Shown here piece by piece: positions 765 to 8,791 of a DNA stretch of 8,791 nt. Below the pieces are notes generated by a model. That model saw only the letters and a list, made by a program, of their open reading frames with translations, was not told the origin of the DNA and made no database searches. The position numbers and the translations under genes are program-made. The stretch is from a virus (lineage: Duplodnaviria > Heunggongvirae > Uroviricota > Caudoviricetes). The stretch spans positions 1 through 8,791 of IMG/VR virus record IMGVR_UViG_2740892488_000005; one strand, given 5' to 3'. How positions within the stretch are numbered: position 1 is the stretch's first letter; each line of letters starts with the position of its first letter.

Positions 765-820
765 ACTTTACAATTTGTATTTGTAATGGTCAATGTGTTT
801 TTAAAAAATAATTTGTAGTG
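765..820. promoter_or_regulatory. OL-like operator cluster downstream of the repressor gene
   Basis: AT-rich block with TTTGTA at 774-779, 780-785 and 812-817; palindrome TACAA-T-TTGTA at 769-779; 9-mer ATTTGTAAT (779-787) also present at 1372-1380 in the repressor/cro intergenic region. Confidence 0.4.
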
Positions 821-911: not shown

Positions 912-1304
912 CTATTTTGTCTGGTTTTTGGCTTCAAGTAGTTCTTTTAGCAGTAGATCGAAGTGCTCTCTTTTTTCTTTTAGCTCATTGATTAATTTAT
1001 TTTTTTCGCTCTCAGGCAGTCCTCTGAATAGTTGCAGTAGAGCCTGTTCTTGCGGGGTTAGTTCTTGATTGTAATTACCCGGGTGTAGTGTGGATTCATC
1101 CAAATATTCCCCTTCATTCATGAAGAAAAAATGAACAGGGTATCCGGTCACTTTTGCTAGCTTGTCTAATTTATCTTTTCTTGGAGTTACCCCATTACAC
1201 CATGCCTGAACTGATTGAGCCGTAACCCCAATATGGCGAGCTAACTCAGATTGAGACCAGCCTAAGTCTTTTAGAATCCGTTGTAGTCGGCTAGCAAAAG
1301 CCAT
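912..1304 (-). CDS. Prophage CI-like repressor, XRE-family HTH, 130 aa, with no LexA-like S24 peptidase domain
   Basis: ORF 912..1304 (-). N-terminal HTH signature (LGWSQSELARHIGVTAQSVQAW) and helical C-terminus; divergent from a cro-like gene across an operator-rich intergenic region. No Shine-Dalgarno within about 15 nt upstream of the ATG, so possibly a short-leader or leaderless mRNA. Confidence 0.8.
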   Translation of the reverse strand: MAFASRLQRILKDLGWSQSELARHIGVTAQSVQAWCNGVTPRKDKLDKLAKVTGYPVHFFFMNEGEYLDESTLHPGNYNQELTPQEQALLQLFRGLPESEKNKLINELKEKREHFDLLLKELLEAKNQTK

Positions 1305-1424: not shown

Positions 1425-1655
1425 ATGGATAAACAACTGCAAGACAAAATTCTTTCCGTAATGAGTCAATCCGAGTTAGGGCGGCGATTAGGGAAAAAAC
1501 CACAAACGGTAAGCCTCTGGTTCAAAGGACGGGTTCCCGGTGAAGAGGTTTTGCGCACATCTGAAGCTCTTGAATGGCGCGTGACCCCTCATGATCTTAG
1601 ACCGGATCTTTACCCAAACCCAGATGACAGCTTGCCTAAAACGGAAGCAGCTTAA
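1425..1655 (+). CDS. Cro/YdaS-like HTH regulator, 76 aa
   Basis: ATG at 1425 preceded by AAGGAG (1414-1419). The track ORF starts at 1389 but that ATG lies inside the operator repeats with no SD. HTH (SQSELGRRLGKKPQTVSLWF) and the C-terminal HDLRPDLY motif typical of Cro/YdaS-type prophage proteins. Confidence 0.75.
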   Translation: MDKQLQDKILSVMSQSELGRRLGKKPQTVSLWFKGRVPGEEVLRTSEALEWRVTPHDLRPDLYPNPDDSLPKTEAA

Positions 1656-1713: not shown

Positions 1714-2190
1714 ATGGAAAACCAAGAGGAATTACAAAAAGAGATTTTGACCTGGGCGGCAAGGGCAGGGCAGGAACTCGTCACGATTGAAATCTGCCGG
1801 GCCTGGTTCAGTCAGGGACGCAATGATGAGTTGAGACTACATGAATTTGAGGACGCGGACGGCAACGTGGACTGGAGAGCCATCAACAACAATCGGCAGA
1901 AAATCTTTCGCTGGTTACGTGGCGAGACAACGGCGGCGCGCCGAAAAACTCAGGTGCTGGCCAGTGTGATGAAAGCCGTGCTACCCGCAGAACGGCGGGC
2001 ACGTCTGGAGTCGCCGGGCGATCCCGTTTTGCTGGCAACGCTGGCGGCAAAAGAAGGGGTGGAAGCGATTAACGCTGTACATCTCCACTTCGCGCCAGAG
2101 TTAACTATTCAGGAAATTGACGAAGCAATAGCGGCGCTGGTAGCGACGCGAGGAGCAGTGATACGCACTGCGCAAGACCACCATGCATGA
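1714..2190 (+). CDS. YdaT-like (CII-analog) prophage regulator, 158 aa
   Basis: ORF 1714..2190 with AGGAG at 1703-1707. Contains the motif NNRQKIFRWLRGETTAARRK, which I recognise from Rac-prophage YdaT-family proteins; sits immediately after the Cro/YdaS-like gene as in Rac-type immunity regions. Confidence 0.65.
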   Translation: MENQEELQKEILTWAARAGQELVTIEICRAWFSQGRNDELRLHEFEDADGNVDWRAINNNRQKIFRWLRGETTAARRKTQVLASVMKAVLPAERRARLESPGDPVLLATLAAKEGVEAINAVHLHFAPELTIQEIDEAIAALVATRGAVIRTAQDHHA

Positions 2191-2451: not shown

Positions 2452-3042
2452 ATGAACATCCTCCCGTTACTTGATAGACCCATAGCCTTCCAGAGAAGTT
2501 TTATCCGTCTTGAAATGGGCGTGACTGCCGCATTGTTTCTGTCGCAGTTGACGTACTGGACAAACAGAACAACTGACGACGGCTGGGTATATAAAACCCA
2601 GGATGAGTGGGAAGAGGAAACAGGGCTTTCACGATACGAGCAGGAGGGCGCGCGCAAAAAACTACGTGGTCTCGGCGTCTTGCTGGAACGTAAACAGGGC
2701 TTGCCTGCCAGGCTGTACTACAAAATCGATAATGATGTGTTGTGCCAGCTACTTACGTCCGCATACAAGGATGCGGAAAAACCACATACAGGTGAGGGGA
2801 AAACCACCAGGCCTGTACGTGGAAAACCAACAAACATTCTTACAGAGAATACTACAGAGATTATTACTGATGGTGAATCGGCTGACGCCGACACCCAACA
2901 ACCTGCCGACCAGAGAATAAATTATCAGGTGATACTCGATACCTATCACGAGATTTTGCCAGAGATGCCACCAGTGAAAATCCTCACTGACGGCAGAAAA
3001 AAAACACCTTCGCACTTTCTGGAAAAAATTCAATTTCAATGA
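2452..3042 (+). CDS. Phage replication initiation protein (replisome-organiser type, winged-helix N-terminal domain); reading frame probably disrupted near its 3' end
   Basis: ORF 2452..3042 (196 aa); N-terminal region resembles phage O-like/DnaD-like initiator winged-helix domains and lies directly upstream of a DnaB-family helicase. An adjacent frame stays open from 2978 to 3208 and ends overlapping the helicase start, suggesting a +1 frame change at A8 (2997-3004) or A6 (3023-3028). Confidence 0.6.
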   Translation: MNILPLLDRPIAFQRSFIRLEMGVTAALFLSQLTYWTNRTTDDGWVYKTQDEWEEETGLSRYEQEGARKKLRGLGVLLERKQGLPARLYYKIDNDVLCQLLTSAYKDAEKPHTGEGKTTRPVRGKPTNILTENTTEIITDGESADADTQQPADQRINYQVILDTYHEILPEMPPVKILTDGRKKTPSHFLEKIQFQ

Positions 3043-5063: not shown

Positions 5064-5300
5064 ATGGCCGGGCAATCAGATTACCTGCCGCCCGGCTTAC
5101 CACACAACCGCGCCAAATGGCCCCAGGAATACCAGCTTAAAGAGCACTACGACATGCGAGCGGCGGCGCTGATCCGCCAACTCTTTGAGAAACGTATTCC
5201 GAGGGGAAGCGTGATTGAGCAAATCGGAATGACGCCAGATACGTACCGGGAATTTTTCAGAGAGCGTCTGAACTACTGGAGAGGGGTGATGGAACAATGA
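5064..5300 (+). CDS. Hypothetical protein, 78 aa
   Basis: ORF 5064..5300, starting 1 nt after the previous stop; purine-rich AAAGGGG upstream. Its stop overlaps the next start in an ATGA arrangement. Confidence 0.55.
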   Translation: MAGQSDYLPPGLPHNRAKWPQEYQLKEHYDMRAAALIRQLFEKRIPRGSVIEQIGMTPDTYREFFRERLNYWRGVMEQ

Positions 5301-5942: not shown

Positions 5943-6016
5943 TTGCGGAGTGACGTAAAACGAATCGTTGTGGGTGTAATATCGTCAATATCATTGGTTT
6001 CCCGGAGGGAAAGGAC

Positions 6017-6238
6017 ATGTTTGGCGATAAACTGGAGTTACCACGGAACGGGCGGATAGTGCTCTATATTTCAGATTACAAAGTAACCCGGGCTGAGGTG
6101 TTGGAACCGGAAAAACATCTGGTCACGTTACCGGACATTATTGAGTTGTATAAGCGGGTCGGATATGTGGACTTGCATCGCGATGATGTTCCCGTTGAGT
6201 GTATGGAATGTGAACACCGGAGGTTTGAAGTTGATTGA
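6017..6238 (+). CDS. Hypothetical protein, 73 aa
   Basis: ORF 6017..6238 preceded by GGAGGGAAAGG; followed about 90 nt downstream by a terminator-like hairpin plus T7. Confidence 0.5.
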   Translation: MFGDKLELPRNGRIVLYISDYKVTRAEVLEPEKHLVTLPDIIELYKRVGYVDLHRDDVPVECMECEHRRFEVD

Positions 6239-6329
6239 ATTGACTTAGAAAAAGTCCGGGGCTATAGTTTCCGCGCAGCCGCAAAATCGGTTGCCGGGAT
6301 TGGCGTCCCGGATATCTAAGTGACGCATA

Positions 6330-6349
6330 GCCGCGTTAGCGGTTTTTTT
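6330..6349 (+). terminator. Putative intrinsic terminator closing the small-gene operon
   Basis: GCCGC (6330-6334) / loop GTTA / GCGG (6339-6342) followed by T7 (6343-6349). Short stem, moderate confidence. Confidence 0.45.
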
Positions 6350-6448
6350 ATGTGTTAGGCACGGCCACATTCGCATTATGGTGGGCTGTGTGGGGGCTTC
6401 TGTGGAAGCGCCGGGTTCACTTAGCCGGTTACGCCAACCCTGCACAGC

Positions 6449-6481
6449 TCACCACCAGATGATTGGCGTCGCTGGTGGTGA
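6449..6481. promoter_or_regulatory. Perfect 10-bp inverted repeat immediately upstream of the antirepressor start
   Basis: TCACCACCAG (6449-6458), 13-nt spacer ATGATTGGCGTCG, CTGGTGGTGA (6472-6481); right arm contains the Chi octamer GCTGGTGG (6471-6478). Antirepressor SD AAGTGAGG at 6495-6502 and ATG at 6511. Confidence 0.4.
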
Positions 6482-6510
6482 TGAAAAAAACACTAAGTGA
6501 GGCCACTGCG

Positions 6511-7300
6511 ATGACAGTCCAAATATCTGCGGAATCCCTTTCTCCGCTACATCATAACCAACTTCCCGTCATCACTACTGAATTGCTTGCCAGTTTGTAT
6601 GGCACGGAAGTAAATGGTATCCAGCAAAACTTCAAGCGCAACATCGCCAGATTTGTCGTAGGAAAGCATTTTTTTTAAGCTGGAAGGTAATGAATTACGC
6701 GACTTCAAAAACAGACTGACAGATAGTCAGTCAGTTGCTAAACATACCCGATCCCTCATTCTCTGGACAGAACGCGGCGCAGCTCGCCATGCCAAAATGC
6801 TGGAAACAGAACAGGCCTGGGAAGTTTTCGAAAAGCTGGAAGATTGTTATTTTAGCCAGCGTCCAGAGAGGCGGAGTACAACTACCGATGACCGTACTCC
6901 CTTGCGTGATGCCGTTAATATACTGGTCGGCAAGAAAGGCATGATGTATCCCGATGCCTACACCATGATTCATCAACGCTTCGCCGTCTCTCACATAGAA
7001 CAACTGTCACAGACGCAAATGTTAGAGGCGATTGAATACATCCACTGCCTGCTACTCGATGAAAATCACCCAACCATTCCAGATTTTTCTTTTATCACCA
7101 CTATCAAAAATGGAAAAGTGACCGGGATGCGCCATGTTGCCAAAGGCGAACATCTGATGACCTTTGACGCTTTCAAAGAGATCGCTGAGCGGGCAGGGTA
7201 TCTGGTGATCCACAGCGACAATCTGCGAAGTATGACACTGGATAAATTGATGGTAATGGGGAAAAAGTCGGCTATATCCGTTGCTAATTCAGCATTTTGA
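6511..7300 (+). pseudogene. Phage antirepressor-type regulatory protein, interrupted by a frameshift in a T8 run
   Basis: N-terminal part in frame 1 (6511-6678, ends GKHFF-stop) and C-terminal part in frame 2 (track ORF 6797..7300, open from 6677). Removing one T from T8 (6669-6676) gives a continuous ~262-aa protein with the conserved stretch GKHFFKLEGNELRDFKN...SLILWTERGAARHAKMLETEQAWEVFEKLEDCYF, which I recognise as antirepressor-like. Confidence 0.65.
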
Positions 7301-7589: not shown

Positions 7590-8294
7590 TTAGTTTTGAT
7601 CCACTGACGCTGAGAAGGCAGCAAATCTTTTTTTCTTCGCCGGGGTTAACTTGCTCCAGACGGTACTCAAATCAGAGTCGGCATTCGCAAATGCCATTCG
7701 GGACTGATCAAGGTTGTCAGCTTTTTGCGGCTGAAGTTGTGCCTGTCTCTCTATTTGCTTCTCCGCCTCATACTTAGCCTGTTCTTGCGCCCTGAGTTGC
7801 ACCTGTTGTTCCGCTTCAATTTGACTCTGTTGGGCATCCTTAGCCTGCTGGATTTTCTGCTGCTCAACGATCGGGGTGATAATGGAAAGCGATGTCAGTA
7901 AAGCGGCGCCCACTGATATCGGATTATCAGTAGAGGTTTTTACAAAAACGTTTTTCTGATCGTCGGTCGCCTGCACGGTGTAGGTGATACGTTTTGAAAA
8001 GGCGTTTGCGTTGTTCTCCAAAAACAGGCTTTCCATTTGCTTATCGAGATTACGATTAAAATTCTTTCTGTAAGCATCTGAAAGCTGGACGTACTCGTTC
8101 GCAGATAGAGTCATCGTCACGGTCCCTTCACAAGTTTTCATTGTGCTGCCCGTGTCACTTGATGTTGTGGAGATCTCAGAGATGGCTAGTTTGATCTTGT
8201 CCAGTGTGCTTCGTTTGGTCTGATTAGTGACATCAGGGTATTTATCGACCTGTTCAGAGAGTCCTTCATAAGCAGATTTTTTTAATAAATCCAT
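7590..8294 (-). CDS. Hypothetical protein, 234 aa: N-terminal domain, central hydrophobic helix, Gln/Glu-rich coiled-coil C-terminal region
   Basis: ORF 7590..8294 (-). Hydrophobic stretch ISVGAALLTSLSIITPIV followed by a heptad-like Q/E/A-rich segment. Frame stays open upstream of the ATG until a stop at plus 8358-8360, inside the IS end, so the native 5' end or promoter may have been displaced by the IS insertion. Confidence 0.55.
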   Translation of the reverse strand: MDLLKKSAYEGLSEQVDKYPDVTNQTKRSTLDKIKLAISEISTTSSDTGSTMKTCEGTVTMTLSANEYVQLSDAYRKNFNRNLDKQMESLFLENNANAFSKRITYTVQATDDQKNVFVKTSTDNPISVGAALLTSLSIITPIVEQQKIQQAKDAQQSQIEAEQQVQLRAQEQAKYEAEKQIERQAQLQPQKADNLDQSRMAFANADSDLSTVWSKLTPAKKKRFAAFSASVDQN

Positions 8295-8420
8295 GAGAGC
8301 TGACTGGGTTATTTCCGAAGAACAACCGATCTCATCTTTTTTGTTATCTGAAGTGGTTTACTGAATTTGGCCACCTGAACAGAGGTGATATGCTCACCTC
8401 AGAACAACACAGGTGCCATA

Positions 8421-8721
8421 ATGAAAAAAAGAAATTTCAGCGCAGAGTTTAAACGCGAATCCGCTCAACTGGTCGTTGACCAGAATTACACCGTGGCAGA
8501 TGCAGCCAGCGCTATGGATGTCGGCCTTTCCACAATGACGCGATGGGTGAAACAATTACGTGATGAGCGGCAGGGAAAACACCAAAAGCCTCCCCTATTA
8601 CCCCGGAACAAATTGAAATCCGTGAGCTCAGGAAAAAGCTACAACGTATTGAAATGGAAAATGAAATATTAAAAAGGCTACCGCGCTCTTGATGTCAGAC
8701 TCCCTGAACAGTTCTCGATAA
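8421..8721 (+). pseudogene. IS3-family transposase OrfA (HTH plus leucine-zipper regulator), apparently frameshifted twice
   Basis: [53 protein letters not shown] in frame 3 (from 8421); expected continuation [27 protein letters not shown] in frame 2 from 8597; expected C-terminus [14 protein letters not shown] in frame 1 ending at TAA 8719-8721. Frame changes coincide with an A4 run (8576-8579) and the A5G slippery-site region (8671-8676). Confidence 0.65.
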
Positions 8722-8791
8722 TCGGGAAACTCAGGGCGCGTTATCCTGTGGCCACTCTCTGCCATGTGTTCGGGGTCCATCGCAGCAGCTA
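8676..8791 (+). CDS. IS3-family transposase OrfB, N-terminal part (3' end beyond the window)
   Basis: Frame 3 open from 8676 to the window end with a typical OrfB N-terminus ([16 protein letters not shown]). Confidence 0.6.

Follow-up and report, generated by a model that had tools for sequence, protein, structure and literature searches.

A short prophage repressor lacking a self-cleavage domain in Escherichia coli, and candidate Rem-family antirepressors with proposed SOS and RNA-gated inputs

How is a prophage induced if its repressor has no evident means of cutting itself? The question is raised by a 130-codon gene in the stretch of DNA analysed here, 8,791 nucleotides long and referred to throughout as the window. 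A preliminary description of the window proposed that the encoded repressor is inactivated by an antirepressor rather than by RecA-stimulated autocleavage, and that a frameshift in the antirepressor gene has locked a prophage remnant in the repressed state. The reading that we favour, and consider probable though well short of certain, is that a repressor of the DicA/GfoR type is removed by antirepressors with a Rem fold, which respond to SOS and to RNA-gated inputs, with a copy in the early operon reinforcing the response.

The prophage and its repressor

The window matches E. coli chromosomes: a search of 5,426 complete genomes found 80% or more of its length in 415 of them, with an identity of about 99.9%. 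In the annotated relatives (L001, L003 and L004) the prophage lies beside tRNA-Leu, downstream of pgsA, and its genes run from integrase through recombination, immunity, replication, nin/Q, lysis and terminase functions to the portal. The element is therefore complete, a lambdoid prophage of full length, rather than a remnant; the latter word, as used in the preliminary description, was not an observation, and L001, L003 and L004 are complete prophages. The window itself covers the immunity, replication and early-right part of a lambdoid E. coli prophage, one whose integration site adjoins a tRNA-Leu gene. Its first half consists of the repressor gene, a divergent cro-like gene (YdaS), a cII-like gene (YdaT), an O-like initiator and a DnaB helicase. 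The second half consists of several small nin-type genes, an ORF encoding 73 aa, an RNA module (6262–6459), the antirepressor gene ant, and an LprI-like gene that is cut by ISEc52. The ISEc52 copy at 8349 masks the right-hand side of the source genome. No tRNA or tmRNA was found in the window by ARAGORN, and a permissive Rfam scan of positions 1–920 gave only an RprA-like match below threshold (36 bits; gathering score 70). The features of the immunity region and the right-hand boundary are as follows.

912–1304, minus strand: prophage repressor of the DicA/GfoR/GtgR type, 130 aa, with HTH, disordered linker and two-helix C-terminal region
1425–1655, plus strand: Cro-like regulator of the YdaS family, 76 aa (Pfam YdaS_toxin and HTH_3; phrog_35; start as annotated in the relatives)
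1714–2190, plus strand: CII-like regulator of the YdaT family (Pfam YdaT_toxin, E 2e-15; phrog_163 'CII-like transcriptional activator', E 7e-42)
768–786, no strand: left operator-like palindrome TTACAA-N7-TTGTAA, overlapped by a leftward PL-like promoter (793 to 765)
1361–1398, no strand: two adjacent operator-like palindromes (1361–1379 and 1380–1398) in the divergent repressor/cro intergenic region
8349–8791, plus strand: left end of ISEc52 (IS3 family), inserted in the LprI-like gene (7590–8348, minus strand)

Residues 7–58 of the repressor match Pfam HTH_3 (E 1.5e-12), and the only HTH models matched are of the Cro/C1 type. The AlphaFold (AF2) model shows a five-helix HTH (residues 2–61), a disordered linker (68–82) and two further helices (84–94 and 98–129), with no β-strand anywhere in it. 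An HMM search of the repressor returned no Pfam match to Peptidase_S24 (PF00717) even at E ≤ 0.1. The sequence and profile matches in the PDB agree, being to HTH domains only (for example that of 434 repressor) and never to the C-terminal domain of LexA or CI. The preliminary description of an HTH followed by a helical C-terminus, with nothing like an S24 domain, is thus borne out on both points.

That a cryptic catalytic site nevertheless allows the protein to cut itself under RecA stimulation is a possibility to which we give almost no weight. Apart from the lack of an S24 domain by either Pfam or PDB profile search, the C-terminus is all-helical and about 47 residues long, there is no Ala-Gly or Cys-Gly dipeptide in the 130-aa sequence at which cleavage might occur, and homologues are uncleaved. 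The likeness to lambda CI, P22 C2 and LexA lies in the N-terminal Cro/C1-type HTH, the divergent cro-like gene and the flanking operators, whereas the S24 domain, cleavage site and catalytic dyad of those proteins are missing, and the length is about half.

A much closer likeness is seen with a different group of repressors. BLASTP aligns the protein end to end with DicA of the K-12 prophage Qin (residues 1–129, 31% identity, E 1e-15), the C-terminal helices included, and tblastn aligns it with the Gifsy-1 and Gifsy-2 repressors at 33% identity and 98% coverage, the Gifsy-1 protein (GfoR) being itself a short non-cleavable repressor. A shallow single-sequence search found seven close homologues, all of 81–139 aa and with an HTH only. 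The features of sequence and layout that mark the DicA/GfoR/GtgR class are present: a length of about 130–140 aa, a Cro/C1 HTH and a homologous helical C-terminus, together with an immunity region in which a cro-like gene is divergent from the repressor gene and operator-like sites lie on either side of it. By sequence, then, the repressor is a full-length homologue and a member of this short, non-cleavable class.

What is known of the class bears directly on induction. The Gifsy repressors remain uncleaved when induced with mitomycin C, and are inactivated by small LexA-controlled antirepressors that are encoded outside the immunity region (Lemire et al., PMC3121763). Homologues of the Gifsy repressors, DicA and RacR among them, are found in most E. 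coli genomes (PMC3121763), and a promoter controlled by DicA (dicBp) is derepressed 165-fold by Rem of Qin (Ragunathan and Vanderpool, PMC10448788). Because the repressor is homologous to the Gifsy repressors and DicA, the central proposal of the preliminary description rests on a known class. The antirepressor route holds up to this extent, that inactivation in this way without cleavage is on record for the class (for GfoR and GtgR of the Gifsy prophages in PMC3121763, and by genetic inference for DicA with Rem in PMC10448788) and that the distal gene, discussed below, is a homologue of anrP; what does not hold is that ant would be the only route.

The operators were sought as palindromes. 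The pattern TTRCAR-N7-TTGTAA occurs at only three places in the window (768–786, 1361–1379 and 1380–1398), which lie on either side of the repressor gene; counted by strand, this makes 6 matches where chance would give 0.25. Operators of the OL and OR kind should be arranged in this way, which supports the assignment of the repressor. A consensus scan gave no convincing candidate for a PR-like promoter.

Cleavage of the repressor in trans has also to be considered. By analogy with ImmR/ImmA or CapH/CapP, an M78 metallopeptidase resembling ImmA or CapP could cut the disordered linker (68–82) seen in the repressor model, and the relatives do encode a CapP-like peptidase (PADLOC capP, E 2.4e-25; Pfam Peptidase_M78) about 10 kb rightward. 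However, in the ImmR/ImmA and CapH/CapP arrangement the metallopeptidase gene stands beside the HTH repressor gene, which is not the case here: the peptidase gene is not adjacent to the repressor gene, none is present in the window, and the region that holds it varies between prophages. Moreover, there are prophages with the same LexA-Rem-Q module that lack the peptidase, and the Gifsy repressors of the same class are uncleaved on induction. We regard this route as very unlikely.

The antirepressor gene and other Rem-family proteins

The preliminary description placed an antirepressor-type gene 5 kb downstream of the repressor, which proves correct. A second gene of interest lies a short distance to its left.

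6511–7300, plus strand: ant, AnrP-like antirepressor gene, with an ORF6N N-terminal domain and a Rem-family C-terminal domain (7100–7225)
6017–6238, plus strand: Rem-family protein of 73 aa (phrog_340), encoded as a free-standing gene of the early rightward operon and bearing a C-x2-C-x-H tail; candidate second antirepressor

In the window ant is split into two parts (6511–6678 and 6797–7300). The intact allele, found in the relatives, encodes a protein of 262 aa which contains a Pfam ORF6N domain and matches phrog_4792, 'anti-repressor', over the whole of its length (E 2.7e-163); no match to the protein was found among solved structures. Over its first 137 residues the protein shares 66% identity with Gifsy-1 AnrP (STM2616), and expression of AnrP induces its own prophage, Gifsy-1 (PMC4825925). 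The C-terminal part has a different affiliation, with residues 197–238 matching the family phrog_340 (E 4e-12 and 3e-13). The C-terminus of AnrP itself matches the same family weakly (E 0.0077); a clear Rem-type C-terminus distinguishes the 262-aa protein found here from its Gifsy-1 counterpart.

The family phrog_340 includes Rem of K-12 (E 4.4e-21), the 73-aa protein of the window (E 3.5e-21) and a 59-aa protein encoded elsewhere in the relatives' prophage (E 1.6e-20). One member of the family bears the Pfam annotation 'Rem', and comparison of the family alignment with Rem by hhalign gives a probability of 93.6% (E 2e-7). The 73-aa protein is predicted to consist of a β-hairpin and a helix, and Foldseek matched this model to nothing in the PDB at E < 1. 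Single-sequence searches were shallow: GfoA had 13 homologues, the 59-aa protein matched 3 phage records, and the 73-aa ORF had 8 homologues when the exhaustive library was searched. The relationship of the Rem family to GfoA is marginal by hhalign (P 0.0016, probability 16%), and BLASTP of AnrP against GfoA gives an alignment in the same register which is not significant (E 8.2). It is worth adding that Rem was originally reached from GfoA by iterated searches (PMC10448788).

The Rem-family domain thus occurs three times in the full-length relatives, as the C-terminus of Ant and as the free 73-aa and 59-aa proteins. Neither the presence of three Rem-domain paralogues in one prophage nor the Rem-type C-terminal domain of an AnrP-like protein is described in PMC3121763, PMC4825925 or PMC10448788.

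The ORF6N domain of Ant suggests another view of this protein. It may not be the cognate antirepressor at all, but may act on other prophages or elsewhere (in DNA binding or superinfection control), leaving the free Rem-like proteins alone to act on the repressor. The ORF6N module is common to the Ant proteins of Stx phages, where residues 1–116 of Ant alone align, and Stx phages have cleavable CI repressors. The ORF6N domain also gives weak PADLOC matches to candidate defence proteins (PDC-S05), and antirepressors that act across prophages are documented, in the case of Fels-1 FsoA acting on Gifsy-2 (PMC3121763). On the other hand, the C-terminal domain of Ant is of the Rem family, like the free copies that the prophage encodes, and it is its own prophage that AnrP, the closest characterised relative, induces. 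We consider a non-cognate Ant unlikely, though deserving of some attention.

LexA boxes were looked for with a weight matrix built from known boxes, which themselves score 13–26. No LexA box was found anywhere in the window, the best score being 10.7, inside the ant ORF, where the maximum for shuffled sequence averages 9.1 ± 2.7. The scan bears out the earlier report that there is no LexA box upstream of ant, and there is none at the 73-aa ORF (6017–6238). The picture changes outside the window. A scan of the full prophage of L001 found one outstanding box, TACTGTATAAATATACAGGT, with a score of 25.4, located 20 nt upstream of the gene for the 59-aa Rem-like protein. This gene, known from the relatives, lies beyond the IS, some 5.1 kb rightward of position 8348 of the window and just before DUF1367-YbcO-Q, which is the position of rem in Qin. 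Diverged Rem-like genes at the same position ahead of DUF1367-YbcO-Q keep LexA boxes of different sequence, with scores of 26–28 for E. coli copies (whose proteins are 76% identical) and 23 for the Rahnella type (41% identical). Qin rem of K-12 has no LexA box, nor does one metagenomic copy, and SOS control is therefore not universal in the Rem family.

There are parallels elsewhere. In SPN3UB, which has a related repressor, a LexA box is followed by dinI and gp59, and gp59 matches the Rem-family HMM weakly (E 3.4e-4). Gifsy-1 likewise has a small gene with a LexA box to the right of its replication genes, although the protein there belongs to the GfoA family (phrog_4847) and not to the Rem family (phrog_340), and no dinI precedes the gene here. 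With regard to the relatives' 59-aa gene, the arrangement of a non-cleavable repressor and a small LexA-controlled antirepressor recalls Tum of phage 186 and AntC of N15; the likeness lies in the logic, and ant in the window has no LexA box. With its LexA box, the 59-aa Rem-like gene is likely to be the SOS input, and prophages that carry it would then be SOS-inducible.

We now return to the split in ant. The interruption is a run of eight T residues (T8) at 6662–6669, where the relatives have seven (T7). The frameshift of the preliminary description is therefore truly in the window sequence, as the allele differs by the extra T, but its biological reality is doubtful. Comparison of the window with L001 shows no substitutions in 8,348 bases and seven single-base differences in length, all of them in homopolymer runs; two further single-base homopolymer differences are found in the IS part, making nine in total. 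Besides ant, the genes disrupted by such indels are the O-like gene, a small ORF, the LprI-like gene and that of the transposase. Comparison with eight related assemblies likewise shows no substitutions relative to the window, and several of the eight have homopolymer indels of their own. None of the 456 complete genomes that carry this stretch of ant has the T8 allele (best identity 200/201), and look-up of the exact product found it in a single other assembly, L021. For the O-like gene, the A8 allele was seen again in 11 contigs. Nine homopolymer indels without any substitution are the signature of homopolymer sequencing error, and we consider it very probable, from these comparisons, that the frameshift in ant is an artefact of sequencing. 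Even if real, it is private to the strain.

Two biological accounts of the frameshift were considered and set aside. Decay of the lineage was rejected, given the absence of T8 from all 456 complete genomes and the existence of assemblies that are identical in substitutions yet differ in their indels. Phase variation was rejected as well, T8 being present in one other assembly only.

The suggestion that the ORF6N antirepressor is the sole route to induction, and that its decay by frameshift has locked a remnant in the repressed state, is accordingly hard to sustain. The window sequence does split ant, the T8 allele is also present in assembly L021, and a nearby gene is interrupted by an IS. Against this are the nine homopolymer indels with no substitutions relative to the relatives, the complete genomes, in which T8 is not found, and the relatives, which are complete prophages. 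A real frameshift in ant would in any case not lock the prophage, because two further Rem-family genes exist, one in the window (6017–6238) and one in the relatives' prophage with a LexA box. We think it very improbable that the prophage is locked. The case calls for some caution, since what looks like decay of a gene can, in some assemblies, be produced by homopolymer indels.

RNA elements upstream of ant

Directly upstream of ant is an RNA module, which was missed in the preliminary description. Its elements are listed here.

6240–6268, plus strand: isrK-C4-ant promoter TTGACT-17-TATAGT, conserved with the Gifsy-1 isrK promoter, without a repressor operator and without a LexA box
6275–6349, plus strand: IsrK-like small RNA (Rfam isrK, 80.4 bits; gathering score 50), with an intrinsic terminator at 6329–6349
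6300–6306 (b1) and 6316–6323 (a1), plus strand: C4 target copies inside IsrK, identified by complementarity
6374–6459, plus strand: C4-type antisense RNA (Rfam C4, 75.2 bits; gathering score 45), with a' loop at 6417–6424 and b' segment at 6431–6437
6378–6500, plus strand: upstream ORF of 40 codons, positional equivalent of Gifsy-1 orf45 and P1 icd
6463–6469 (b2) and 6493–6500 (a2), plus strand: downstream C4 targets, a2 overlapping the ant Shine-Dalgarno sequence (GAGG, 6499–6502)

Rfam also identifies c4-a1b1 at 6262–6314 (52.9 bits, against a gathering score of 46.7). The C4 loop at 6417–6424 is a perfect 8-nt complement of both a1 and a2, and the segment at 6431–6437 is a perfect 7-nt complement of both b1 and b2. 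The upstream ORF begins in the basal stem of C4 and stops inside a2, 10 nt before the ATG of ant.

The module matches 257 phage records. In order to assess the pairings, 12 loci were compared: ten were sampled from phages, and the window and Gifsy-1 made up the rest. Rfam confirms isrK and C4 at each of them. The a' loop has 11 different sequences over the 12 loci, and yet a perfect a2 is present at the ant ribosome-binding site in every one of them, and a perfect a1 in 10. The b' segment occurs in four variants, with a matching b1 at all 12 loci and a matching b2 at 11. This covariation of loop and target shows that the pairings are under selection and that the copy in the window is intact. 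Its breadth is not described in PMC3121763, PMC4825925 or PMC10448788.

The closest described system is that of Gifsy-1, with which the RNA region is collinear (isrK-orf45-anrP), including the promoter, the isrK and C4 (STnc1160) RNAs and the small upstream ORF. The long Gifsy-1 transcript is translationally silent, and IsrK supplied in trans activates translation of orf45 and anrP more than 100-fold (PMC4825925). The two loci differ in several respects. The specificity loop a' of C4 is not the same; an additional free Rem-like gene lies directly upstream of isrK here; and ant is located upstream of Q, whereas anrP is located downstream of antQ. In Gifsy-1 the stop codon of orf45 overlaps the start of anrP, in contrast to the 10-nt gap found here, which makes translational coupling less certain. 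Qin has no isrK-C4-ant module, and the three Rem-domain copies found here, one of them fused to ORF6N, further set this prophage apart from Qin, in spite of the shared Rem family and repressor type.

The second point of comparison is the immI region of P1 and P7. There too one transcript contains both the targets and the C4 RNA, which is processed from it; C4 is flanked by the a1/b1 and a2/b2 pairs, a small ORF precedes ant, and the loop sequence is the determinant of specificity. In P1, C4 blocks the expression of icd and ant. The locus differs from P1 and P7 in three respects: its primary repressor is unrelated to P1 C1, its Ant is an ORF6N-type protein, and a terminator closes the a1/b1 segment, which forms the separate small RNA IsrK. 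By analogy with the P1 and Gifsy-1 experiments, we infer that C4 would repress ant and that IsrK would relieve the repression. Since a repressor operator and a LexA box are both absent from the promoter at 6240–6268, it is probably constitutive. The lack of a LexA box does not leave ant uncontrolled, because the IsrK/C4 switch is directly upstream of it.

A possible scheme for induction

On the basis of these observations, the favoured reading of Rem-fold proteins acting on a DicA/GfoR-type repressor can be set out as a series of steps. The repressor, which probably dimerises through its helical C-terminus, would occupy the three TTRCAR-N7-TTGTAA operators. It is incapable of self-cleavage, and lysogeny would most likely end when small Rem-fold domains bind the repressor and strip it from the DNA; the physical binding of a Rem-domain protein to the 130-aa repressor is, by analogy with the characterised systems, the most likely way in which it would be inactivated. 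The free 59-aa copy, which in the relatives stands behind a near-consensus LexA box, would provide the SOS input, and the 73-aa copy in the early operon (6017–6238) would reinforce derepression once it has begun.

The third Rem-type domain would be controlled by RNA. The promoter at 6240–6268 would yield mainly the short IsrK RNA, and those transcripts that read through its terminator would carry the C4 antisense RNA, the loops of which may pair with a2 and b2 at the ribosome-binding site of ant and silence it. IsrK, with its a1 and b1 sequences, would serve as a decoy, so that an excess of IsrK would lift the block imposed by C4 on ant. A more ambitious version, which we put forward only tentatively as it is rather less likely than not to hold in full, is that a single repressor is served by three Rem-fold modules with three separate inputs: LexA and the SOS response, self-reinforcement through the early operon, and an IsrK-gated input that is independent of SOS and responds, for example, to stationary phase or stress.

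All the components belong to families that have been described (DicA/GfoR repressors, Rem, AnrP/ORF6N, IsrK and C4), and it is their combination in this prophage that is uncharacterised. If the scheme is correct, then antirepressors of the AnrP type, including AnrP of Gifsy-1, would act through a C-terminal Rem-like domain that has previously gone unremarked, and IsrK would be functionally the a1/b1 decoy of a C4 circuit of the P1 type. The locus would then be a compact natural case of one repressor that integrates SOS and RNA-gated signals by way of a single small protein fold. Prophages of this type are present in hundreds of clinical E. coli genomes, and whether they wake on DNA damage, or through the RNA switch on other stresses, bears on lysis, gene transfer and the response to antibiotics.

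Homopolymer changes and the insertion element

No substitutions separate the window from its closest genomes, every difference being a single-base change in the length of a homopolymer (at 64, 351, 1313, 2369, 2997, 6669, 7628, 8575 and 8670). At least five open reading frames are broken by these indels, among them those of the O-like initiator, the antirepressor gene ant, the LprI-like gene and the transposase. The sequence looks like an error-prone assembly, and further "pseudogenes" in the window are therefore to be distrusted. One of the affected genes is the following.

2452-3042, O-like gene for the replication initiator, with an A8 allele at 2997

The A8 allele shortens the initiator to 196 residues, and was found again in 11 independent contigs, part of them from otherwise clean assemblies. 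In contrast to the run of eight T in ant, it may be a real and recurrent slippage variant.

The insertion site of ISEc52, a member of the IS3 family, varies between strains within the same prophage. In the window the junction is at 8348/8349, inside the LprI-like gene. The element appears to be actively mobile in this prophage lineage.

Positions of ISEc52 in the window and in two E. coli relatives with the full prophage (L001 and L004)
Window, 8349-8791
L001, 15001-16250
L004, about 16828-18075

The left end of the window

Downstream from the repressor gene, a stretch of roughly 900 bases (1-900) contains no annotated gene among the rows sampled from the 448 complete genomes that carry it. 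The region has the following features.

793 to 765, leftward, predicted PL-like promoter
314 to 300, minus strand, predicted intrinsic terminator
131-198, three exact copies of the repeat GCTGGTCAGGC

There are six terminator-like hairpins on the plus strand of this region, against 1.1 expected. Folding of the putative leftward transcript of 469 nt gives a slight gain over shuffled sequences (z = -2.3), and Rfam returns a sub-threshold, RprA-like match at 290-399 on the minus strand. The region may encode an untranslated leader or a small RNA, or may act in antitermination.

Small proteins, a peptidase gene and putative SOS coupling

Two further genes, one of them beyond the window, are listed here.

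5064-5300, 78-residue protein homologous to the theta subunit of DNA polymerase III (phrog_1105 at E 1.9e-29, with a weak match to Pfam DNA_pol3_theta)
L001 28398-29501, minus strand, outside the window, CapP/ImmA-like M78 metallopeptidase (PADLOC capP, E 2.4e-25)

The theta homologue, which can be likened to Hot of P1, is encoded amid nin-type genes. The partner of the peptidase is a 201-residue protein of unknown function, and the pair, located between ant and the LexA-controlled Rem-like gene in a stretch that is variable among prophages, may be a DNA-damage-responsive regulator of defence cargo.

The free 73-residue Rem-like protein (6017-6238) and its closest homologues conserve a C-x2-C-x-H motif after the Rem domain, which may form a small metal-binding tail; the motif is absent from the 59-residue LexA-controlled copies. 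In two other E. coli prophage loci, L007 and L010, the LexA box that precedes the Rem-like gene (about 5965-5984) has a central (TA)n that is short by one TA unit, and this loss lowers its score from 28 to 14, which suggests that SOS coupling varies naturally between some E. coli prophages. The stretch 41052-41625 of SPN3UB, a functional Salmonella phage with a related repressor, carries dinI and gp59 behind a LexA box with a score of 26.4. The match of gp59 to the Rem-family HMM is weak (E 3.4e-4), and hints that Rem and the small GfoA-position antirepressors are one superfamily.
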